Positions 2,528 through 49,787 of a stretch of 64,000 nucleotides of DNA are shown here, one piece after another. The notes below the pieces were generated by a model. It was not told where the DNA came from, did not search any database, and worked only from the letters and a program-made list of their open reading frames with translations. The first letter of the stretch is position 1. Each line of letters opens with the position of its first letter. The stretch is from Lytechinus pictus (taxonomy: Eukaryota): NCBI RefSeq assembly GCF_037042905.1, contig NC_087251.1:18106001-18170000 (forward strand). Direction: 5' to 3'. A program made the position numbers and the translations under genes.

Positions 2528-5415
2528 CAAGGTTACCAGACGTCCCGTTTTTCCCGGGATCGTCCCATATTTTGCTCCTTTGTACCGGCGTCCCGACAAA
2601 CCCTTCCCGCGACGCCTATTTGTCCTGTATTTCAGAATATTGAACATAATGCAGTTAATACATTTAAAAGTGACGAATTTTCACCAAATACCAACAGATG
2701 ACGAAGCAGAGACAACAATAAAATCGATAACTAAACTTTTGCAAGTTCTGCGGTGATTGTATTGACCCAATACATTGCAAACAAACTGGCCTCCTGCCTG
2801 TGTGTGGCAGGCTACTAGCTAGGCATGTAGGATCGGAGCAGATTCTCAATGGTGCAGACAATGACATGATAAACAGTTTTCCACCATAATAATCACAAAA
2901 TCGGCGGGAAATTTGTATAATTATAAATTATTATGGATTCTCAGATTACTGATTTGGAGATGTAATCAGAGGACAAGTTATTGAGTTTTCATAACTAGAT
3001 CTAATTGTTTCAGCTTTCGCTTTGAGTCTTGTTGTGTATGATGCGGCGATGTTTCATCTAATTATCAAGTTGACAATGTTTCACTTTGAAATTTTATTCA
3101 TTTCTAAAACATTTTAGATTTTCAATTTAAAAAATATGTTAAAAAAATACCAAATATCATTATGATTTTTGTTAGATGATTGGATTGTTTTTGTTTGCTT
3201 GAAGTTTAAACTTTGTTCCTCTTTCTTTCTTTTCTATTCTTCTTTCATCATCCTTCTATCCTTCTTTCTTCATCCTTCTATCCTTCTTGCTTGCCTTATT
3301 TTGTTCCATCTATCTTTATTTCCTATCTTTCTTTCCTGGTCCTTTCTCTCTGTTTTCATTTTTCTTTCTTTCCTTCTTTCTCTTACCTTCCTTCTTTATT
3401 AAATTTCCTTTTACTATTTCCTTCATTCTACCTCTATTTCCTTCATTCTTTCTTTCCTTAAACTTTTCTTTGCTTCTTTCTCCCTTCCTCTCCTTTTTCT
3501 TTTGGTTCTTTCTCTCCTTCCATAATTTTCTTTTTTCATTCTCTCCTCCTTTCATATTCTCTTCTCCCTTCATTCTTTCCTCCCTCTCTTTCCTCTTTTC
3601 TTTCATTCTTTATTTTATTTTCCCTTCTAATTCTTTCTTTCCCTCCCTTCCCTCGCTCCTTCCTGTTTTTCTTCTTTCTTTGTTACTTTCTTTCTTTCAA
3701 AGAATGAAGGAAACATTTTTCTTTCCTTCATTCTTTCTTTCCTCCTCCTTTTTTCTTTCTTTTTTTTTCTTCTCTCCTTTATTTTGTCTTTCACAAATTT
3801 ATTCATCTTCCCTTCCTTTCTTTTTCTTTCTTTTTTATATTCAATTCAAAGAATGACGGAAAACATTTTTCTCTCTTTTATTCTTTCTTTCATCCTTCTT
3901 TTATTTTTTCCTTCATTTTCCCTCACCTGCATAGCAGAGTGAGACTATAGGCACCGCTTTTCCGCCGGCGGCGGCGTCAACACCAAATCTTAACCAAAGG
4001 TTAAGTTTTTGAAATGACAGCATAACTTAGAAAGTATATAGACCTAGTTCATGAAACTTGGCCATAAGGTTAATCAAGTATTACTGAACATCCTGCCTGA
4101 GTTTCCACGTCACATGACCAAGGTCAAATGTCATTTAGGGTCAATGAACTTAGACCATGTTGGAGGAATCAGCATCAAAATCTTAACCTAGGTTTAAGTT
4201 TTTGAAATGTCATCATAACCTAGAAAATATATGGACATAGTTAATGAAACTTGGACATAAGGTTGATCAAGTATTACTGAACATCCTGCCTGAGTTTCAC
4301 GTCACATGACCAAGGTCAAAGGTCATTTATTTTAGGGTCAATGAACTTTGGCCAAATTGGGGGTATCTGTTGAATTACCATCATAACTTTGAAAGTTTAT
4401 GGATCTCATTCATGAAACTTGGACATAAGAGTAATCAAGTATCACTGAACATCCTGTGCAAGTTTCAGGTCACATGATTAAGGTCAAAGGTCATTTAGGG
4501 TCAATGAACTTTGGCCGAATTGGGGGTATTTGTTGAATTACCATCATAACTTTGAAAATTTATTGGTCTAGTTCATAAAACTTGGACATAAGAGTAATCA
4601 AGTACTAGTATCACTGAACATCCTGTGCGCATTTCAGGTCACATGACCAAGGTCAAAGGTCAATAAACTTTGGCCATAATGGGGGTATCTGTTGAATTAC
4701 CATCATAACTTTGAAAATTTATTGGTCTAGTTCATAAAACTTGGACATAAGAGTAATCAAGTATCACTGAACATCCTGTGCGCATTTCAGGTCACATGAC
4801 CAAGGTCAAAGGTCAATAAACTTTGGCCATAATGGGGGTATCTGTTGAATTACCATCATAACTTTGAAAGTTTATGGATCTGATTCATGAAACTTGGACA
4901 TAAGAGTAATCAAGTATCACTGAACATCCCATCAAAGTTTCAGGTCACATGACCAATGTCAAAGTTCATTTAAGTTCATTGAACTTTGGCCATTTTAGAG
5001 GTAATCATTAGATTGCTGTCATAACTTTCAAAGTTTATAGATATAGTGTATAAAATGTGGATATAGGGGTAATCAAGTATCACTGACAAGTTTTAGGTCA
5101 CATGATCAAGGTCAAATGTCAATAAACGTAGTATTGTATCATTATATGAATGGTGTTTTTTGTGAATAATTATTTTATAATAGTTTTCAAAGTCAGCACT
5201 GCTACTATATTGAATCGCGTGATGCAGGTGAGACCGCCAGAGGCATTCCACTTGTTTCTTTCTTCTCAATTCATATTTTTTCTTTCTCTCCTTCATTCTT
5301 TCGTTCACCCTTCCTTCCAATTCTTTATTTTTTTTACAAGTCTAACACTGTGTAGCCTTCTTTGTTGATCTTTTTTGTCGTCCCGTATTTCATTTTGTGA
5401 AATCCGGTCACCCTG
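2528..5415. mobile_element. Non-autonomous hAT-like DNA transposon in a SELENON intron, containing a nested repeat element
   Basis: Imperfect TIRs CAAGGTTACCAGA / TCCGGTCACCCTG, flanked by the 8-bp near-duplication accccttc / acccctcc. Confidence 0.55.
3922..5256. mobile_element. Helentron/HINE-like non-autonomous element carrying an array of about seven 150-190-bp units
   Basis: Subterminal inverted repeats CTCACCTGCAT / ATGCAGGTGAG, a short 3' tail ending CTTGTT, and T-rich flanks. Each unit has CATGAAACTTGGACATAAG...GTCACATGACCAAGGTCAAAGGTCA. Confidence 0.65.
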
Positions 5416-32990: not shown

Positions 32991-34099
32991 GAACCCTATG
33001 TCAAGCCGCGTGAGGGCTATAGGCCACCGAGCGACAGATAGGTGATTTTCTTCGGCTTATATAACAAGACGCGCCCAGGTACTATAGAGTGGCAGGAATT
33101 TTATAACATATTATGATTTGATTTGCGTAAACTGGTAGATCACACTAGTTAATTTAGGATTTAATGATAATGATAATAACAAGTTTTATGCATAAGCGCA
33201 CCTCCCATCTTGATTATATGCTGAAGGAGCTTCAAAGCACACGTTATTAAAGAACAAAAATATTGACCAACAAAAACTTTAGTGCAATGAGATGTAGGCC
33301 TACCCCAAAAAAGTTTGAAATAGTATCTTAAATATTGATAATTATGATTTCGCAATTGAAACTAAATTGTTATTTGCGTCGTGGGCATTACTCTCGGGGG
33401 TGGGTGGGGGGGGGGGGGGATCGTTGAAATAGAATTGAAATGGAGAGGGAGGGTGATAGAGACCAAACACATGGCTTTCTTCTACGTCTGCTGCATGTGT
33501 TTCATGTTATTATTACTTTGTTTAATTATAAATATTTCCGTAGTTTTTCTGACGTATAGGCCTACATGATATCTCGTTAATATATGGGACCGATGATGTA
33601 CCCACAGCGGATAGATGAAATGCTGGTACGCTCGATCGCTGAGCGCTGCACACGTCCAAATTATGATTCATGACTTTATTCTCCTGGCTTGGATAGCAAT
33701 AAATCATGACGTCACGTGAATCGGATAAAAGAAATTTCGCCCACGTATGCTATTGTCATTGCTTCGATTCGCTGACGTGTATCCGTAGTTAAAAAGCTGT
33801 CACATGAATATGCATATATACCAAAACTCTTTCGACTGGCGATTCTATAATTTCTCAATGTTTTTATGTGAAAATGGCAAATATAGAAAAATTAAACAGG
33901 TTCGTAGATTTTGTTCTATGTTACTTGATAAATGTAATTGGAGAGATTTTAGTAGTGTGCTTTACTTTTCAGTTTATTATGCCAACTCTAAGATATTTAG
34001 ATTAATATCATGGTATTTGGGATATCCAATAATCATTTACTAACCATCAAATCACATACATTGTATATGAATGAGTCGTTTTTGAGACCGCAACTCGGC

Positions 34100-34139
34100 A
34101 TCGCTTCTCGGCCTTTTGGCTAAGATCATGTGTAGTATC
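34100..34139 (+). ncRNA. U2: U2 snRNA gene, 5' part (nt 1-40), interrupted
   Basis: ATCGCTTCTCGGCCTTTTGGCTAAGATCATGTGTAGTATC is the conserved U2 5' end, including the branch-point recognition sequence GTAGTA. Confidence 0.95.
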
Positions 34140-36028
34140 AACAAATACCTGGCTGAATGTCGGATTCCAGCTCCTTGGAAGGTAGCCTCCACCATCCTAC
34201 TTCACAAGGCTGCCCCCACAGAGGATCCTGCCAACTTCCGCCCCATCGCCCTACAGTCATGTCTCTATAAGCTTTTTATGGCTGTGCTTGCTGACCGGCT
34301 GACCTATTGCGCTTGTGAGAACCAGTACCTCAGCCCCGAGCAGAAGTCCGCTCGCCCCTGTGAGGGGTGCTTCGAGCACTCCTTCCTTCTCTCAGCTGCC
34401 CTGAAGGACTGCAGGAGAAACCAGAAGACCATCTGCATCGGTTGGTTGGACCTTAGGAATGCATTTGGAAGCATTCCTCATCCTGTCATCAAGATCGTCC
34501 TGTCCAGTCTGGGTGTCCCTGGTTCGCGTGTTACCCTCGTCATGGATGCCTACAATGGTGCGTCAACCTCGTTCACGCTGACCGGTGGCCAGACTGACAC
34601 CGTACCCATCAGATCAGGGGTGAAGCAAGGCTGTCCGATGTCCCCAATTCTCTTCAACCTGGCCATTGAACTTATCATCAAGGCAGTTAAGAAAAATGCA
34701 TCAAACAACCATCTCGGAGTGACTGTCCAGGGCAAGAACCTCTCCATCCTGGCCTATGCTGATGACCTGTTGCTGCTCAGCCGAGACACTGAAGGCCTCC
34801 AATTCAAGCCTCAGAAGTGTGAAACCCTCACCCTCATCATATCCAAGGGGCTGCTGTCCCATCCCTTACTGAAGAAGACCCCATTGGTCTCCAAGACTCA
34901 CAAGTCTCCAGGAGAGCTATAGGAAGCTGTCGTCAGACATCGAGGCCATTTCTTCCTCCCTTATGGCTCTTGGCAGAAACTGGATGCCATCAAGACCTTT
35001 GTGATACCCATCCTTCAGTATGCATTGCGGGCTACGGAATACCTCAAGTCCGACTTGAAGCCCCTACGAGCAGCCATTACAAAGCATGTGAAGAAGATCT
35101 GACATCTCCCCGTGAGATCATCCAACGCCTTTGTCTTTCCATCCCGGCATTCTGGTGGTTTGGCTTTTGTTGACCCTGGAGTGGATGCTGACATCCTTGT
35201 CGTAACCCAAGCTGTCCGTATCCTAGCATCTGGTGACGACATGGTGAAAGCCGTTGCTCTAGGACTGTTGTCCACAGGACAGTCCATTCTGCACCATCGG
35301 ATGACTGCATCGACAAGTAATTATCCGGGAGTAGTGAGGGTCCTCTGGCGAACTCAGGGAATAGTGGCCAGGCATCATCTCTTTGGTCACGTACAAGGGC
35401 TGCATCGCGTCGCCTCAAGATAAGGATCGTCGGAGCCTCAAGCGGCGACGTCAAGGTTGAGAGTGGAGGTCGTGCCTTCCCCTCCAAGAAGGTGACTTCA
35501 AGCCTCCGCTCTGATCACCACAACGAGCTGGCGGAGAAGCTTCGGTCCCTTCCCGACCAGGGCAAGGTAGCCAGGTCACTCTCCTCGGACAGTTTCGCTA
35601 ACGGTACATCATGGCTGACATCCGGGAGCTTTATCCGGTTCTGTGATTGGCGGTTTATCCACCGAGCACGTTTGAACTGCCTCCCAACCAATGCTGCTGC
35701 TCGGCGTTGGAAGCAGAACATCAACGCGAAGTGCCGAAAGTGTGATCACCAGTTGGAGACGTTGCCTCACATCATCAACAACTGCCGTCCCAACATGGTT
35801 CCGATCCGCCGGAGGCACAACCTGATCCAGAAACGTCTGGTGAAGGCAATCCACCACGGAGATATCTACAAAGACCAACATGTCCCCGGCGACCCGAATC
35901 CAAAGGAGCGACTCGACATCACAGTGGTTGAGGGTGACAAGGTGACCATTGTCGACATCACCATCCCATTAGACAATGGTCCGGATACCCTCTCCACAGT
36001 TGCCAACGCAAAAGTCACCATGTACGAC

Positions 36029-36583
36029 CCCGGGGGGGGGGGGGCACTCGACCAAAAAAAAAAGTAGTGGGTATGTGCCGCGGGCGAGACAAAAAACGGG
36101 GGCCTTGGAGCGGGCTTATTGTAAAAAGGAGGGTCCTCGGAACGGGCTTCGGAACGACAAATGTTTGTGAAAACGGGGGTCATTGGAACGGGTCGCCTGC
36201 GTGTGATTGCATATTCATCCCTATGGAACGGGCATACGTGCATGCAGCTATAGCCCGGCGGCACGGGCGCCGGGTGCGCTAGCGCAGATGCGATGGTCGG
36301 ACAGCGCTCTGCGGCCGCTTTTCACCAAAACTGCGGCTCATTGTAGCAGATCAATACGGCCGGAACGGCGTAACGGAAAATGCGAAGCTTTGGAGCGGAT
36401 TTCTTTCTTCTTTTTTTCTCGATAAGAAGAAAATGCTATGCTTTGGAGCGGCTTTCTTTGTTCTTTTTCTCAATAAGACAAAAATGCTATGCCTTGGAAC
36501 GGAAATTTGAGTGTAAAAATGGGGGTCCCCTCCGCGGCACATACCCACTATGCATTATATACTGAGTGCCCCCCCCCCCCGGG
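36029..36583. mobile_element. Non-autonomous DNA transposon with 8-bp TSD inside the Utopia endonuclease domain
   Basis: TIRs CCCGGG(G)nCACTC / GAGTG(C)nCGGG. TSD tgtacgac at 36021-28 and 36584-91. Confidence 0.88.
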
Positions 36584-36633
36584 TGTACGACACACTGCGA
36601 CAAGATCTGGCCAGCCGTGGCAAGGATGTCGAG

Positions 36634-38034
36634 CAGTGGCGTAACAGGCGGGGGGGCAGGGGGGCAAGCTGCCCCCCCTGGCGGAGCTCACCGGGAAAAT
36701 TAAAAAAACGGGAAAAATAAAAAAAGGGGAGGGAAGGTAAAGGGAAAAGAAAGAAAAAAAGGGGAAAGGAAAAGGGAAAAGAAAACTAAGAAAAAACATA
36801 AAAAAAGGGAAAACGGAAAGATAACGGGAAAGGGAAGGAAAAAAGAACAAGTGAGAAAAAACAATTCGCCCCGATAAACAAATACATTAGCATGATTAGT
36901 AAAGACAGGGAAATAAATTAAAGATGACAAAAAGGCAAACAAAAGCGGGAAATAAAGGCAGAATGGAATTAGCCAAAATCTAAATTGGAAAATAAAGAAT
37001 AGGGACAAGATAACGTACACTACCGGGCTGCTGAGGATTGAGATAACGAGCGGGAAGAAAAATGGATGGTATATAGCATAATGTCGTATGAAAGTCTATC
37101 ATAAACTTGCTAAATCTCCAAAGGCTCTGTCCAAGAGTCAAGACCCCGTGCAGTGGGGGCTCTTCATCTGTAACCTTTAATGGGTTCTATAACGGGCCCC
37201 TATATGGACCCGTCCTGCATTAAGCTTTACGTTGAAGCACTGGCGTACCGGGGGGTGGTTCCACAGCCAAGGGGAAATAAAAGAAAATAAAGGAGGCAGC
37301 GAAATGAGATGAATGAAACAAAAATAAAGGACATGATATTGGCTTTAATGATTAGAATTTCATTTTAACAGGCCATTTTTTTCTGGCTCGCTTCGCTCGC
37401 TGGCGACTTTTTACAAATTTTTCCACATTTGCTATGGTGTGCCCCTCACAATATTTGGATGATTACGATACACAACTGTATTGAATTTATGTGTTGTGTT
37501 AAAGCTATATAAATATACACGCAATTTGATAAAAATAAGTGGCAATCTGTAAGGTTTAAAATGGCTTTGATATCAAGAGGTTCCGGGGCTCTGCCCTGGA
37601 CCCCACCCATAAAGCACTGTTGTATGGATGAGTTTGGACCATGGCCCCCAAAAGTTCTACAACCAAACAAAAAAAATGAGGAAAGAAAGGAAAGTGTATT
37701 ATATTTTTTTGAATATCACGTTAAAATCTATCTTCATGTTAGATTCTCATGAAAAGTTTAATTTTTTTATCTCGCTCGCTTCGCTCGCTCGGGACCTATA
37801 TTAAGCTACTTCTTGCCAGAAGCGCCATACTCGGCCCCCTCGAGCATATATAGCTTCGCCCTGATGCTCACAATCATAACAAAAATCCTGTTCACCGTGG
37901 CGTACATAAAAAGAGAGAAAAAGGGAAAGAGAGGAGGGTGAAATATGATATCATCTTTTTAACATTATGTCAAAATCTATCACAAAATTTGATTTTTGCA
38001 ATAAAAATGTCAAAATTTTTTGCTCGCTCGCTCG

Positions 38035-38072
<38 letters not shown>

Positions 38073-38193
38073 CCCGATACGCCATATCGCCCCCTCAAAA
38101 TTTTTGCCTTATGACGCCATTGCCTGTTCCATGATATGACCGGGAAATTTTTGGCTCTTGCACCCCTGGCCACCGACCCCTGTTACGCCGCTG
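36634..38193. mobile_element. Non-autonomous hAT-like element inside Utopia
   Basis: TIRs CAGTGGCGTAACAGG / CCTGTTACGCCGCTG. Perfect 8-bp TSD atgtcgag at 36626-33 and 38194-201. Confidence 0.88.
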
Positions 38194-38377
38194 ATGTCGA
38201 GGTCTATATGCCCTCGTAATTATCGGCTCCCTTGGTTCGTAGCAAGGGGATAACGAGCAGACTCTCAGCCGTCTCGGCATCTCTCGCCGGTACAGAGCCC
38301 TGATGAACCGTCTCTGCTGTATCGACGCCATCAAAGGCAGCCGAGACATATACGTAGAGCATGTCACTGGTCATCGG

Positions 38378-38775
38378 CAGTACGAATAACTCATTATTAT
38401 ATACATGTATTATTCACAATCAATTATGTTTCAGACAATGTACTTATTATTATTTGCAACCAATTATGTTCCTGACAAAGTACATAAATGCCTGTTAGCC
38501 AAACAGGCATGATGAAAACAAATATGAAACCCCCTTGCACATTAATTTTTTAACAACATAATGCTTTTTAAACAAGCATTGTCCCACACAATATCTAGAT
38601 GTTACCCCATTTAATTTTCATCCTTCGGTAACCTTCATATCGTTGGATTAACATACCTGATTTGTTAAACTGTACTTAGTGAGTGTTGCATATGTTAATA
38701 AATCTGTTCTTTTCAGCTTAATATCTGAAACGCGACTCACCGAGTCACTTGTATATTAAACTGATTTTTTAACAT
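38378..38775 (+). repeat. Left copy of the 398-bp direct repeat flanking the RTE element
   Basis: Matches 42818-43215. The only difference I saw is A38484 versus G42924. Confidence 0.93.
38703..38775 (+). pseudogene. Duplicated internal U2 fragment (nt ~39-111), cut by the RTE
   Basis: TCTGTTCTTTTCAGCTTAATATCTGAAACG...AAACTGATTTTTT corresponds to U2 stems IIa/IIb and the Sm site. Confidence 0.88.
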
Positions 38776-41700
38776 CTCTTGGCTTGCTTCGCGAACGAAG
38801 ATTTATAAAGGCAGTCCACGTCGACTGCAGGCACGCATGTGACTCACAAGGCCAATACGTGATAGACAGGCCCGGCCACAGCGGCCGCAGTCAAAAGTCA
38901 CGTTTGGTGTGGCTGCTGAGGCTTCGCGATTCTTTCTGCGGCGACGTTTCTCCCTCAGGTGATCTTTTCGGGATTCCTCGAAAGAAGAGGCAGCCTGATG
39001 GACTATATGTCGCCAGCTAGCACGGTCAGCAGCCAGAGTAGACCACTGGCAATGATCGATATGGCATGTACCGAGGGACTTCTTCAGGATGTCCTTGAAG
39101 CGTTTCTTTGGAGCCCCTCTGTCACGATTGCCAGTAGAAAGTTCGCCGTACAGGGCTATCTTGGGCAGGCGATGGTCTTCCATTCTTGAGATGTGTCCTG
39201 CCCAACGGAGCTGAGTCTTCAGCAGCATGGCCTCGATACTGGGGATCTCCGCCTGTTCAAGGACCTCAACATTTGTGACATAGTCGGTCCAGTGAATGTT
39301 GAGGATGATCCGGAGACAGCGCTGATGGAAACGCTCCAGGAGTCGCATGTGGTGGCGGTAAGTTACCCACGACTCAGAACCGTACAGTAGGGTGGTGAGG
39401 ACAACAGCTCTGTATACGCTGATCTTGGTGCCCCTTTTCAGATGCTTATTTCTCCAGACCCGCTTGTACAGTCTGCCGAAGGCACTGTTAGCTTTGGCCA
39501 GTCTGTTGTCTACTTCCCTGTCAATCTTGGCGTCTGAAGTAATTGTACATCCCAGGTAGGTAAACTGGTGAACGCTCTTCAACACAGTCTCGCCAATAGT
39601 GATGTGAGGAAGGCAGTACTCTTCCCGGGGTGCAGGTTGATGGAGGACTTCCGTCTTCTTCAAGCTGACTTCGAGTCCGAAGAGTTGAGCAGCCTCCGCA
39701 AAGCAGGATGTCAAGCACTGCAGGGCTCTTTCGGTATGGGCAACGAGGGCAGCATCATCGGCAAAGAGAAGGTCTCTAAATATTTGCTCACAAGTTTTTG
39801 TGTGGGCCTGCAGTCTCCTGAGATTGAATAGACTGCCATCGAGGCGGTAGCGGATGTAGACAGCCTCGTCTTCATCAAGACCTTCCATGGCCTGCTTGAG
39901 CATTACGCTGAAGAAGATACTGAACAGCGTCGGTGCAAGGACACAACCCTGTTTCACACCGTTTGTGATTGGGAAAGATTCGGAGTGATGGCTGTTTAAC
40001 CTAACTTGGCCACGCTGGTTTTCATGCAGCTGGATGATCATACTGAGGAACCTTGGGGGACAACCGAGGCGTTCCAAGATTAGCCAGAGGCCCTTTCTGC
40101 TCACCGTGTCAAATGCCTTGGTTAGGTCGACAAACGTTATGTACAGTCCTTTATTTTGTTCCCGGCATTTCTCTTGGAGCTGACGGAGGACGAAGACCAT
40201 GTCTGTGGTACCTCGGTTTGCTCTGAAGCCACACTGGGTTTCTGGGAAGTGGTCTTCTGCGATGACAGGTACTAGCCTATTCAAGAGCACTCGGGCAAAG
40301 ATTTTTCCTGCGATGGACAGTAGAGTGATACCCCTGTAGTTTGAGCAGTCAGACCTTTCCCCCTTATTCTTGTATAAGGTAATGATGACTGCATCGCGGA
40401 GGTCTCCTGGTAGCTTGCCCTGTTCCCAACAACAGACAAGGAGTTCATGGAGCTTGTTGTGTAACACTGGTCCTCCACATTTCCATATCTCAGGTGGAAT
40501 TCCATCAACTCCTGCTGCTTTGCCACTCTTCATCTGCTCAATGGCTTTTGTAAGTTCTTGCAGAGAGGGCGGTACATCCAGTTCCTCCTTGACTGACAGC
40601 TGGGGGATGCGGAGGGTTGCTGAGTCCTGGACAACCCGGTCAGCTCCAAAGAGTGCCTGGAAGTGCTCAGACCATCGGGTAAGGATAGATGTCTTGTCTT
40701 TGAGGAGTGTCAGTCCATCCGCACTGCGTAATGGACTCTGAGCGTGGTGTCTGGGGCCATAAACAGCCCTGATGGCTTCATAGAAGCTTCTGTAGTCACC
40801 AGCATCGGCGTACTGCTGTGTTCTTGCTGCAAGTTTGGTCCACCACTCATTTTGCATCACACGAAACTTACGCTGGAGGTTGTTGCAGATGTGACGGAAG
40901 GCAGCTTTCTTCACAGGACAGGACGGATGTGACAGGTGGGCCTGGTGGGCCGATCTCTTCTTTTCCAGCAGTTCCTGGATCTCTTTGTTGTTTTCGTCAA
41001 ACCAATCTCTGCTCTTCTTTATGGAAAACCCGATAGTTTCCTCAGATGACTGCAGAATGGAAGCTTTAAGCGAGTTCCATAGTGTTTCAGGAGAAGGATC
41101 CTCTAGGCAGCTGTTGTTTTCAAGCTTGGCCTGTATGCCTACCTGGAACTCAGCTTTCACTTCAGCTGACTGTAGCTTGTTGAGATCAAACTTTTTCCTG
41201 CGGGGGCCTCCCTTTCTTAGCTTAGGTTTGAAATGCATCCTGAGTTTGCAGCGCACTAGGCGATGGTCAGTATGACATTCTGCGCTGGGCATCACTCTGG
41301 TGTGAAGGATGTCGTTTAGGTCACGTCCACGCACTAAGACATAGTCAATGAGGTGCCAGTGTTTAGAACGAGGATGCATCCATGTTGTCTTGAGACTGTC
41401 CTTTTGCTGGAAGACGGTGTTGGTAATGACAAGTTGTTGTTCCATGCAGAGCTCCAGCAGCAAGCGTCCGTTGTCGTTACACTTTCCAACACCATGCCTT
41501 CCGAGTACTCCTTTCCAGGCGACATCATCCTGTCCTACTCTAACATTAAAGTCGCCGAGAATTAACAGCTTGTCGTCTGCAGGGGTGCTTTGGAGAAGTC
41601 TGCGGAGTTCCGAGTAGAACATGTCTTTTTCTGCAGGATCGGCTTGAAGAGTCGGAGCATACACACTAAAAAGTGTTGCATGCTGCTTGTTCTTTAGAGG

Positions 41701-42817
41701 CAGGCGCATGGACATGATGCGGTCGGAATGACCAGTTGGTAGGTTTTCCAGCTTGGAGGCGATGGAAGATTTGAGCATGAAACCAACGCCAGCTAGACGT
41801 CTTTCCGTTGCAGGTTTCCCTGACCAGAAGAGGGTGTATCCAGCGCCCTGCTCATGTAGGCTGCCTTCTTCTGAGAAGCGGACTTCGCTTAGGGCAGCAA
41901 TGTCAACATCAAGCCTTGATAGTTCATGCGCGATAAGAGCAGAGCGACGTTCCGGTCGGTTGCTGTCAGTTCGGTCAAGCATAGTTCTGATGTTCCAGCA
42001 TGCTAGTTTCAGTGTTTGTACACCCTTACAGGTGGGTGTGTACCTTTTTTTCTTTGTTGTTGTTCGACCGCGTGAGAAGATGCCCGTTGACCGCGGCTAG
42101 CCAACTGGGTGATGAGAGACGAGCTTTGGTTAGGCCACCTTTTCTAGGCCCCTCTCCGTGTGGAGCAAGCAGTGCTGTCCCTAGATAAGGCTGCTCGGTC
42201 GTTCAGGGTGCTGCCGAATGATGCCGTCGTCTCTGGGTCAACATCAGGCGACCAATATCCTGAACCGCCTGCATGCAGGATTGGAACTGCGGCTTCCAGT
42301 GACATCTTCCACCTGCCGATTTCGCCCCTTTCCCGTCGCTACAGGGCTTGGTAAGTTTGGTGGCGTTTTGGACATGGACATGTCCTTTATGCCTGCGCTA
42401 TGGAGGTTTAAAGTGGAGTACAGTGTGCGCAGTGCTGGCCCCACCCTTTACACCCGGGGTTCATCTGCCATAGCCTAGCTAGCTGGGACGGTGACAGCGA
42501 GGTCCTCGAGTCGTAGGTTTTACATCAGACTTTCCTTGTCCTAGATGAAAGGCCTGCCAAGGCTGGAGAGTTCCATCTACCCTGATTTGCTGGATGGCCG
42601 CTGTTGGCTCTCCTAAGCCAGCGCCCTTTAAGATGGATCTTACTTTTCATTCCATCAGGGTGTCCAGCCACCCTCCACACCGAAACCCAAAAGGAAAAGG
42701 TGGGGGAGACGGTTTAGTCGCCGTCGACTCGACCCTGAAACAGGTAGTACTGGCTTCCAGGTTACCAGTAGCAGAAAACTGTCAGGTCTCCAGACCTGAC
42801 AAGCCTCCTGACCTGAC
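38776..42817 (-). mobile_element. Apparently full-length RTE-clade LINE
   Basis: Single intact APE-RT ORF, about 0.7-0.8 kb of structured leader, and a very short 3' UTR ending ATCTTCGTTCGCGAAGCAAGCCAAGAG. Bounded by long direct repeats. Confidence 0.93.
38803..41982 (-). CDS. RTE ORF: apurinic-like endonuclease + reverse transcriptase + C-terminal Zn finger
   Basis: 1059 aa uninterrupted. APE motifs: ALSEVR, GDFN, IDY, TDH. RT motifs: NYRGITLL, QCGFR, GVKQG, FADD. C-terminal CGRC...HMRAC. The frame stays open upstream to 42096. Confidence 0.96.
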   Translation of the reverse strand: MLDRTDSNRPERRSALIAHELSRLDVDIAALSEVRFSEEGSLHEQGAGYTLFWSGKPATERRLAGVGFMLKSSIASKLENLPTGHSDRIMSMRLPLKNKQHATLFSVYAPTLQADPAEKDMFYSELRRLLQSTPADDKLLILGDFNVRVGQDDVAWKGVLGRHGVGKCNDNGRLLLELCMEQQLVITNTVFQQKDSLKTTWMHPRSKHWHLIDYVLVRGRDLNDILHTRVMPSAECHTDHRLVRCKLRMHFKPKLRKGGPRRKKFDLNKLQSAEVKAEFQVGIQAKLENNSCLEDPSPETLWNSLKASILQSSEETIGFSIKKSRDWFDENNKEIQELLEKKRSAHQAHLSHPSCPVKKAAFRHICNNLQRKFRVMQNEWWTKLAARTQQYADAGDYRSFYEAIRAVYGPRHHAQSPLRSADGLTLLKDKTSILTRWSEHFQALFGADRVVQDSATLRIPQLSVKEELDVPPSLQELTKAIEQMKSGKAAGVDGIPPEIWKCGGPVLHNKLHELLVCCWEQGKLPGDLRDAVIITLYKNKGERSDCSNYRGITLLSIAGKIFARVLLNRLVPVIAEDHFPETQCGFRANRGTTDMVFVLRQLQEKCREQNKGLYITFVDLTKAFDTVSRKGLWLILERLGCPPRFLSMIIQLHENQRGQVRLNSHHSESFPITNGVKQGCVLAPTLFSIFFSVMLKQAMEGLDEDEAVYIRYRLDGSLFNLRRLQAHTKTCEQIFRDLLFADDAALVAHTERALQCLTSCFAEAAQLFGLEVSLKKTEVLHQPAPREEYCLPHITIGETVLKSVHQFTYLGCTITSDAKIDREVDNRLAKANSAFGRLYKRVWRNKHLKRGTKISVYRAVVLTTLLYGSESWVTYRHHMRLLERFHQRCLRIILNIHWTDYVTNVEVLEQAEIPSIEAMLLKTQLRWAGHISRMEDHRLPKIALYGELSTGNRDRGAPKKRFKDILKKSLGTCHIDHCQWSTLAADRASWRHIVHQAASSFEESRKDHLREKRRRRKNREASAATPNVTFDCGRCGRACLSRIGLVSHMRACSRRGLPL

Positions 42818-43215
42818 CAGTACGAATAACTCATTATTATATACATGTATTATTCACAATCAATTATGTTTCAGACAATGTACTTATTATTATTTGCAAC
42901 CAATTATGTTCCTGACAAAGTACGTAAATGCCTGTTAGCCAAACAGGCATGATGAAAACAAATATGAAACCCCCTTGCACATTAATTTTTTAACAACATA
43001 ATGCTTTTTAAACAAGCATTGTCCCACACAATATCTAGATGTTACCCCATTTAATTTTCATCCTTCGGTAACCTTCATATCGTTGGATTAACATACCTGA
43101 TTTGTTAAACTGTACTTAGTGAGTGTTGCATATGTTAATAAATCTGTTCTTTTCAGCTTAATATCTGAAACGCGACTCACCGAGTCACTTGTATATTAAA
43201 CTGATTTTTTAACAT
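42818..43215 (+). repeat. Right copy of the 398-bp direct repeat (Utopia 3' end plus U2 fragment)
   Basis: Direct repeat of 38378-38775 at an offset of 4440. Confidence 0.93.
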
Positions 43216-43290
43216 AGGCCATGGAATAGGGGCTTGCTCCATCCTGGCCACGGATTGGCCCGGTATTGCAGTACTCCGGGATCAAATCAC
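43143..43290 (+). ncRNA. U2: U2 snRNA gene, 3' part (nt ~39-186)
   Basis: Continues through the Sm site, stem III (ATGGAATAGGGGCTTGCTCC) and stem IV CCCGG-TATTGCAGTACT-CCGGG with the U2B''-binding loop. Confidence 0.92.
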
Positions 43291-43761
43291 TCTTTCTTTC
43301 AAAGCTACCAACCTTTTCCCATCTTTCGTTCTTGTAAACGATAACAACAACAGCAACAATAATAATAATAATAGTAATAATAATGATGATGATAATAATA
43401 ATTATAATGATAATGAATATACAACATAAATTGTGCTTATGTTTCTAAACGCACAAGAAAGAAAAAATTAAAGAAACAAATTCAAACAAGTGAATGAATA
43501 GTAAATTAAGAGGATGTACTACACATCGAAATAATTAAAAAATCGAAAAGTTAAACTATGAAAATGTGATTTCTCATATCATTCTTCGTAACTCACAGCG
43601 AAAAAAAACCCAATAGCATCGACAACCCTATAATAACTTCATAACAATATACAATTACTAATTGAAATCTTTATGTTCACGAGGATGGATGTTAACTTAG
43701 TGCACGAAATTGTACAAATAAATATATTGTCCTGTTCATTTCATTCTCTTATCAATCCCAC

Positions 43762-43822
43762 CTCCACGAACATGGTGCATCTCCCCAATTCCTCTGATGG
43801 TAATACCTTGTTTATCCAATCC
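43762..43822 (-). pseudogene. Degenerate remnant of a coding exon from the EGF/Caspr-like family
   Basis: tccacgaacatggtgcatctccccaattcctc..gatgg..ccttgt aligns, with indels, to 46266-46320 (the NWGDAP exon). Confidence 0.6.
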
Positions 43823-44883
43823 TACAAAAACCTAGAGCCATGGCGTGAGAGCTTTGAAGTATTCTTGATGTTATGTACAACTAAGAAAAAGGAGTGGTTA
43901 TGATGTAAGAATCATATTTTGGATCATAACACGCATATCTCATAAATGATTTCAGTTAGAAATATTGGAATAAATTTTTTACACTCACCCCACACTCCTT
44001 CAAATTCTGATTTTTTTTTCCTTTTCGGTTTTGTATGTAATATTGAATAATAAATTTTGATACCTTTATGCATATGAGATCCCCTTGATGGAAAAGTAAA
44101 TCTAAACTATAACGCTTCCCTTTATACTGACTTTCTAGAGTTCAAGTAGTTAAAATATATTCATGGGAAATATTTCATAAAGACACTTGTAGGACGTTTT
44201 ATTCGACAGCTGCCATAGTAACAGTGCTTCTCAGCAATCAAAATCATCAAAAGTGCCAATCAGGCAATACAATTTGGATAAACGCTTCCCAAGGAAACGG
44301 AAAATGTGTAAAACTGTTACACATGCATTACATAACAGAAGAGGCATGGGCGTCCCCCTACTCAAAATAGCAGGGGGGAATATCAAATGTCCCCCTACTA
44401 TTTGTGTTCTTTTATGATGGTAAGAAATACATCATTCAAAATCGAAATAAAACATGTATTTTAGGACGAGATGACCTTACTTTTGGGATGATAACCTTTT
44501 TTTTTTTTTTTTGCTTGTCAAATTTTCCAGCCCCTTGTCCCCCTACCTTTTGGGAGGGATTCCCGCCCCTGAGAAGAGGGCCCCTGGGGCGGAAAGTTTC
44601 ACATAAGAAAGTCAAATAAAAGACGTCAGAAATTTTATAGGAAATTTTATAGGAGTGCGGTTTCAGTGTTTTTCCAAGTGACGCTATTTTATTTCAATAC
44701 ATTTTCAACACGTCACTTATATGTATATCGTAACTCTTCGATAATACAGTAGGCCTACTTCAAGACAATAACAATTACAACGATCCTTTTAACACTTAAT
44801 ACTGTAGATTCGAATCATTGAATGATTATATTTGTCAAAATGATAACCATATTCCGTCATAATCTGATGATCAGACTGAATCC

Positions 44884-45065
44884 TCATTCACATTCGAGAA
44901 ATCCAAGTTCATAATAAATCTTTTCGTCAACTCCTCCGGTGTCGCCGAAATGTAATCTGATGACCGGAAGTCGTGTTCTGTCCGTCAGGAAACCTTCGTC
45001 TGTTAATGGTGCACTATTGCCAACGGAATCATCACAATTGCAATATGATCCTGTGTTGTGACAAG
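44884..45065 (-). CDS. Last exon of a secreted EGF + Caspr/neurexin-IV-type fibrinogen-like protein
   Basis: CHNTGSYCNCDD...DEGFLTDRTRLPVIRLHFGDTG...LGFLECE* matches the Caspr-type CNCD..D.G.L....LPV....GDT...LG.L.C pattern. Confidence 0.85.
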
Positions 45066-49451: not shown

Positions 49452-49787
49452 AATGACAATGCACAGACAATAAATTCATATTGTGTAATAATTATTCAAT
49501 ATGTGACACCTTCAAAAGTATTCATACGTTTCGATTTGCGATAATAATCCCATGTTGGCGGCGGTATAGACAGGCATGCGTGTGGGGTCTCACGGGACTC
49601 ATGGCCCCTATATTGTGGCAATGACAATGCACAGACAATAAATTCATATTGTGTAATAATTATTCAATATGTGACACCTTCAAAAGTATTCATACGTTTC
49701 GATTTGCGATAATAATCCCATGTTGGCGGCGGTATAGACAGGCATGCGTGTGGGGTCTCACGGGACTCATGGCCCCTATATTGTGGC
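49452..49787. repeat. Perfect tandem duplication, 2 x 168 bp
   Basis: 49452-49619 is repeated at 49620-49787 with no differences seen. Confidence 0.9.

Follow-up and report, generated by a model that had tools for sequence, protein, structure and literature searches.

Within a 64,000-nucleotide stretch of Lytechinus pictus DNA (contig NC_087251.1, positions 18,106,001 to 18,170,000; hereafter the window), a full-length RTE-clade LINE is enclosed by two 398-bp direct repeats that differ at a single base. Judging from sequence comparison, these copies probably represent the Utopia/U2 target duplicated in one recent RTE insertion, an uncommon outcome reached via host repair and not by the usual cut of ~10–12 bp.

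The repeat pair, the RTE element and the nested host site

An ungapped self-comparison placed the two copies on one diagonal (offset 4440) with one mismatch, 38484 A versus 42924 G, and BLAST of the copies against each other gave 397/398 identical positions (E=0). Mismatches lie directly beyond each end of this diagonal, that is, the match stops sharply, and the window contains no N letters. Both copies adjoin the RTE ends within 1–2 nt, and an extra short target-site duplication (TSD) is absent. At the junctions, 1 nt on the 3' side and 1–2 nt on the 5' side fit element and target alike, so that the strict duplication amounts to 395–398 bp. The repeat comprises the last three codons and the stop codon (38387-38389) of the Utopia ORF, the Utopia 3' UTR up to 38702 and nt 39–111 of U2, which in copy 1 correspond to 38703-38775. 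Being made of the Utopia end plus U2, with copy 2 running on through what remains of U2, the repeat represents target DNA. An earlier note on this DNA had described direct repeats abutting both RTE ends with one substitution, and had read them as a copy of some of U2 together with the stop codon and 3' UTR of Utopia; both statements hold, with the junctions ambiguous by 1–2 nt.

The locus is a nest, in which the RTE element sits in a Utopia/U2 target and Utopia in turn sits in a U2 gene (Table 1). Assignment of the older host element to Utopia is based on its RT, its RLE-type C-terminus and its junction with U2 at 38702/38703, where AATAAA is followed by U2 TCTGTTC. In addition, its last 70 nt resemble the terminus of Utopia-1_LV in the supplement of PMC4640811. 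Utopia itself carries two DNA-transposon-like insertions, at 36021-36591 (8-bp repeats at 36021/36584) and 36625-38201 (9-bp repeats at 36625/38193), and their removal restores its reading frame. U2 nt 39–40 (TC) flank Utopia on both sides (34138-34139 and 38703-38704), representing either a 2-bp duplication or microhomology, unlike other Utopia families, for which the reported values are 0 or 20 bp.

Table 1. Positions of the nested elements, the U2 gene parts and the repeat copies in the window
Feature	Position	Strand	Basis or remarks
U2 snRNA gene, 5' 40 nt, split by Utopia	34100..34139	+	sequence directly
Utopia, U2-targeting RLE LINE, 5'-truncated, decayed, older host of RTE	34140..38702	+	RVT_1 at 34086-34919
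Repeat copy 1, 3' side of RTE	38378..38775	+	self-comparison, BLAST
RTE-clade LINE, full-length, 4,042 bp	38776..42817	-	5' end GGTCAGGTCAGG common to other copies; 27-nt 3' UTR, short (GA)n tail
Single uninterrupted RTE ORF, APE endonuclease and RT	38803..42096	-	Pfam Exo_endo_phos, RVT_1
Repeat copy 2, 5' side of RTE	42818..43215	+	397/398 vs copy 1; runs straight into remaining U2
U2 snRNA 3' part, nt 39 onward, unbroken in copy 2	43143..43295	+	Rfam RF00004, 105.8 bits

The RTE ORF spans 1,097 aa from stop to stop, or 1,059 aa if counted from 41982, where its first ATG lies, and matches Exo_endo_phos (E 5e-13) and RVT_1 (E 6e-34) in Pfam, with no other family at E<=0.001. Its 3' UTR ends in GCCAAGAG, and the (GA)n tail is extended in other copies; the window holds no further copy of the element. 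By eye, the RT motifs are nearest to those of BmRTE-d15 in a published alignment, our own tree being built without labelled RTE references. Among 8,000 scored candidates, 588 homologues of the ORF were found, the best named one by identity being a Lytechinus pictus protein (448/451 residues in the main segment, 99%). Three amino-acid changes are private to the window copy, namely A147V in the GDFNA motif of the endonuclease, Q413H and R790C; the A in GDFNA is carried by all 106 homologues that have the motif (of 120 stored homologues). The frame is open and the protein, judged from these changes, perhaps impaired. In view of the three private changes, what had been called an intact ORF is intact only in the sense of being uninterrupted.

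The element's 5' end (42690-42819, minus strand) folds better than its shuffled versions (z -2.6) and contains a perfect 10-bp hairpin, which is missing from the copy in sequencing run X3 and from the related metagenomic locus L022; the 70 nt that follow are strongly conserved with L022. A self-cleaving element or a translation element at this end is possible. Rfam detected no ribozyme in 37000-45000 at E<=1.

Junctions and age of the insertion

Four of 12 listed runs, all as Logan contigs, were compared with 38100-42860, leaving out the small-share runs X4-X6. In X2 and X7, position 38777 is where contigs of the element end. Unrelated 3' flanks are seen at loose ends of X1 and X7, and their tail can be extended as (GA)n, so that the repeat's first base is compatible with the tail as well. 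On the other side, the X3 copy and L022 start with GGTCAGGTCAGG and have unrelated 5' flanks; the window copy is hence full-length, and 1–2 nt at its 5' junction are shared. Judging from depth arithmetic, other X7 copies would also extend to ~42818. An LTR-like terminal repeat travelling with the RTE element, which the earlier note had named as an outcome that would speak against its reading, is ruled out, since the flanks of other copies are unrelated both at the 3' end (X1, X7) and at the 5' end (X3). Near the 5' junction, TGACCAG and CTGGTCA form an inverted match of 7 nt; a templated insertion was considered here and discarded, because the 5' motif is common to other copies.

In the sense of the element, the target reads ...CTATTCCATGGCCT|ATG, with the TSD beginning with A after T and further T residues at -10, -11 and -13. 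This would put the first-strand nick at 43215|43216, which reads T|A in the sense of the element. The A after T and the upstream T pattern are in line with the signature described for animal RTE elements in PMC6007223. Together with the 1-nt microhomology to the tail, such a first nick would fit TPRT, which is a weak pointer on its own.

Compared with four long majority contigs of X7, the window copy shows four differences in ~4,000 positions, three of which change an amino acid. From this divergence of the element 0.8 mismatches are expected between the repeat copies, and one is seen. The apparent age of the repeat agrees with that of the element, and the earlier claim of a recent insertion gains support from the same numbers. 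Over the Utopia part, three contigs are listed for X7, one of them identical and the other two differing by 4–7%; position 38774 is A in both repeat copies and C or T in the U2 contigs of X1 and X2. Given these differences, copy 2 is local and derives from no other Utopia/U2 locus.

Target-site duplications in related loci and published elements

A metagenome scan covering the best 80 of 124 relatives gave 79 loci, 32 of which extend to the 3' end of the ORF; for 22 loci, the two flanks were compared with each other. TSDs could be scored only in L004, L037 together with L039, L071 and L062/L063, the other loci having flanks that are short and may be collapsed or decayed. Contigs built from short reads disfavour long TSDs, and those of the element's own family break off where the element ends. 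Among the scorable relatives, the closest is L004 (71–76% aa identity), which is grouped with the window element in a supported clade (92/99) and has an 11-bp TSD. In L071, which lies within satellite, the TSD is ~10 bp by eye; a 153-bp match of 83% at this locus is better read as satellite units. L062/L063 have an 11-bp match 1.4 kb upstream, possibly a TSD and possibly due to chance. L037 and L039 represent the same insertion, a 5'-truncated RTE element of a distant family (~49% aa identity), with a 163-bp direct repeat of 96.9% identity (L037:1-157 and 3135-3297; L039:5772-5933). This duplication follows the tail immediately and starts at a T|A site, with the same ...GAG|ATG 3' junction, and as read from these contigs it is an independent long TSD. 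L037 sits in another branch of the tree, next to L071 with its short TSD. Hence, long duplications recur in the RTE clade alongside short ones, in a tiny sample of 3–4 scorable loci.

Repeats in L020 and in L044/L028 were rejected as TSDs, since they lie inside the element. In the latter pair, ~115 nt of internal RTE sequence are repeated just ahead of the 3' UTR (L044:1396-1510 and L028:818-932), and L028 is without the intervening 1.3 kb, owing to an internal deletion or an assembly collapse. Searches of genome contigs for relatives returned one distant fragment only; in viral contigs, none was found by protein, and none of 21 motif matches had a tblastn match to the ORF. Relatives with 71–76% aa identity occur in lancelet, carp, medaka and shrimp (P0008, P0023, P0055, P0082), and this identity suggests that the RTE lineage may have moved by horizontal transfer among aquatic animals.

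Literature searches, which were thin on subscription journals, yielded no publication that deals with long TSDs of RTE elements. The C. elegans element Rte-1, which belongs to the RTE clade, is said to have been described by Youngman and colleagues in 1996 as flanked by long direct repeats. With RTE-clade LINEs such as the BmRTE-d15 subgroup, SR3, HmRTE-e01 and Bov-B, the window element shares the single APE+RT ORF, the short 3' UTR, the microsatellite tail and the A-after-T TSD (PMC2887409, PMC1291365, PMC6007223). In contrast, TSDs reported there for the clade measure 7–20 bp, and the one in the window is ~35 times longer. A short TSD, typical of RTE elements but not defining them, peaks at 10–12 bp (PMC4245944, PMC6007223), with individual values of 10–12 bp for SR3, 20 bp for HmRTE and 10 bp for HzRTE (PMC1291365, PMC2887409); here, it is 398 bp. 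The published screens collected only TSDs of 10–49 bp (PMC6007223, PMC13295347) or 5–30 bp (PMC2912911). Since they stop at 30–49 bp, such capped screens may under-count a tail of long duplications. PMC8501958 and PMC11662393 added nothing on TSD length.

Long TSDs, defined as >20 bp (L-TSD) or as >100 bp, are documented for LINE-1, where an APE-type LINE likewise lies between copies of target DNA hundreds of bases long and shows an ordinary endonuclease-type first nick as well as 5' microhomology (PMC4245944, PMC5223499, bioRxiv 10.1101/2024.12.14.628481). However, these cases stem mostly from cell culture, repair-deficient lines or cancer and are often 5'-truncated, whereas here a full-length RTE element in an assembled invertebrate genome is concerned. 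L1 TSDs >100 bp account for <=10% of events in HeLa cells vs 57–91% in NER-deficient lines, which PMC5223499 explains by a distant unrelated nick, with later loss possible via recombination between the repeats. Tandem duplications of 1–10 kb at L1 sites have been attributed to break-induced replication (bioRxiv 10.1101/2024.12.14.628481). In HeLa cells, according to PMC2912911, extreme TSDs accompany 5'-truncated L1, and all six full-length inserts had TSDs of 10–17 bp; the full length of the window copy therefore counts against the reading favoured here. Other non-LTR elements are also bracketed by long target duplications, namely R9 of rotifers (126 bp) and Dualen-4b of Chlamydomonas (median 900 bp). 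According to PMC9977147, a long TSD is a family trait of these RLE or RLE+APE elements, whereas the window element is APE-only and was scored in one copy.

Origin and significance of the duplication

As in R9 and Dualen, long duplications could be a trait of this RTE family, or of RTE elements broadly, which would often cut or join hundreds of bases off and regularly produce duplications of 100–400 bp that the screens, confined as published to 10–49 or 5–30 bp, have missed. The 398 bp around a full-length copy and the independent 163 bp in the distant L037/L039 favour such a trait, as do the precedents of R9 and Dualen (PMC9977147); Rte-1, if flanked as said, would be a further precedent. On the other hand, the 11 bp in L004, ~10 bp in L071 and possibly 11 bp in L062/L063, as well as the short TSDs published for SR3, HmRTE and HzRTE, argue against it, and L037 is only ~49% identical and belongs to another branch beside L071. 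On balance, we regard a family trait as unlikely. The earlier suggestion that the family routinely duplicates host DNA has in its favour the case of L037/L039, but finds no support in view of L004 and the published peak. Conversely, a 163-bp duplication in one of 3–4 scorable related loci is more than a very rare tail predicts and counts against calling the event uncommon.

The duplication might also stem from more than one event, either because a prior tandem duplication was hit at its junction without generating a TSD, or because two RTE elements inserted 398 bp apart on homologues recombined unequally. The window indeed holds a perfect 168-bp tandem duplication without an insert (49452-49787), which means that tandem duplications arise here without a LINE. 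This duplication directly follows a (GA)n run and is either very recent or an assembly quirk. However, the prior duplication route demands a base-exact hit of the junction and no TSD of the element's own, and unequal recombination demands two insertions of a young family in the same orientation within 400 bp, on haplotypes differing at only 1/398 sites, which has a probability of 0.003 at an assumed divergence of 2%. The repeat age, moreover, matches the element age, and we consider an origin in several events very unlikely. An assembly artefact, that is, a repeat loop or a false duplication at a heterozygous insertion, would be in line with the multi-copy nature of the unit formed by the Utopia 3' end and U2. 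It would also be in line with the result that neither junction, nor an empty allele, was found among the matches listed in the four runs. These runs, however, hold only 46–76% of the words of the stretch and barely cover Utopia, which means that they do not test the locus. Moreover, the window is free of N, a single base distinguishes the copies, the repeat meets the element at its biological ends with TPRT-type junction letters, and both copies have in common the locus-specific U2 letter at 38774; an artefact is thus highly improbable.

For the single recent insertion that we favour, the following course can be proposed. The RTE endonuclease would nick the plus strand after 38775/43215 (...AACAT; in RTE sense T|A), immediately 3' of the Sm site in U2. 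Through 1 nt of pairing, the free 3' T would anneal to an A in the (GA)n tail of the RNA and prime full-length cDNA. The usual second cut near 11 bp would be left unused, and the cDNA end would be joined 398 bp off by host repair through 1–2 nt of microhomology, involving either strand displacement from a distant nick or break-induced replication. In this way, U2 would contain the first nick and Utopia the far end, and later drift would account for the four private changes in 4 kb of element and the single mismatch in the repeat. The earlier note had placed the second nick ~400 bp from the first; a distant nick does yield the observed structure, but so does break-induced replication, and the two are indistinguishable from sequence. 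The 8-mer GGCTTGCT occurs both in the RTE 3' end (38781-38788) and in U2 (43230-43237), ~15 nt past the nick; it could let the RNA tail pair with target DNA, or the match may be due to chance.

The window case is best read as a real and unusually clean long TSD around a young RTE element; long TSDs as such are already known for L1, R9 and Dualen. It is a single event, located in sequence of dead Utopia and a U2 pseudogene, and no function is evident for it. Its importance depends on frequency, that is, it will matter only if long duplications prove frequent in the family. In a broader reading, which we hold to be unlikely, RTE elements of marine invertebrates would have heavy-tailed TSDs, with a sizeable share of heritable insertions, including full-length ones, duplicating 100–400 bp and becoming precisely excisable LTR-like units. 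If so, the heavy tail would have been overlooked because of the ceiling of 30–49 bp in TSD screens, small tandem duplications would arise steadily from RTE elements, and these would offer a natural system to study second-strand completion in TPRT. For the window copy, recombination between the 398-bp repeats is predicted to cleanly excise the RTE element. Long duplications, which bear on how LINEs finish their second strand, are known mostly from cultured, repair-deficient or tumour cells; the clean full-length case described here and that of L037/L039 indicate that animal genomes can retain events of this kind.
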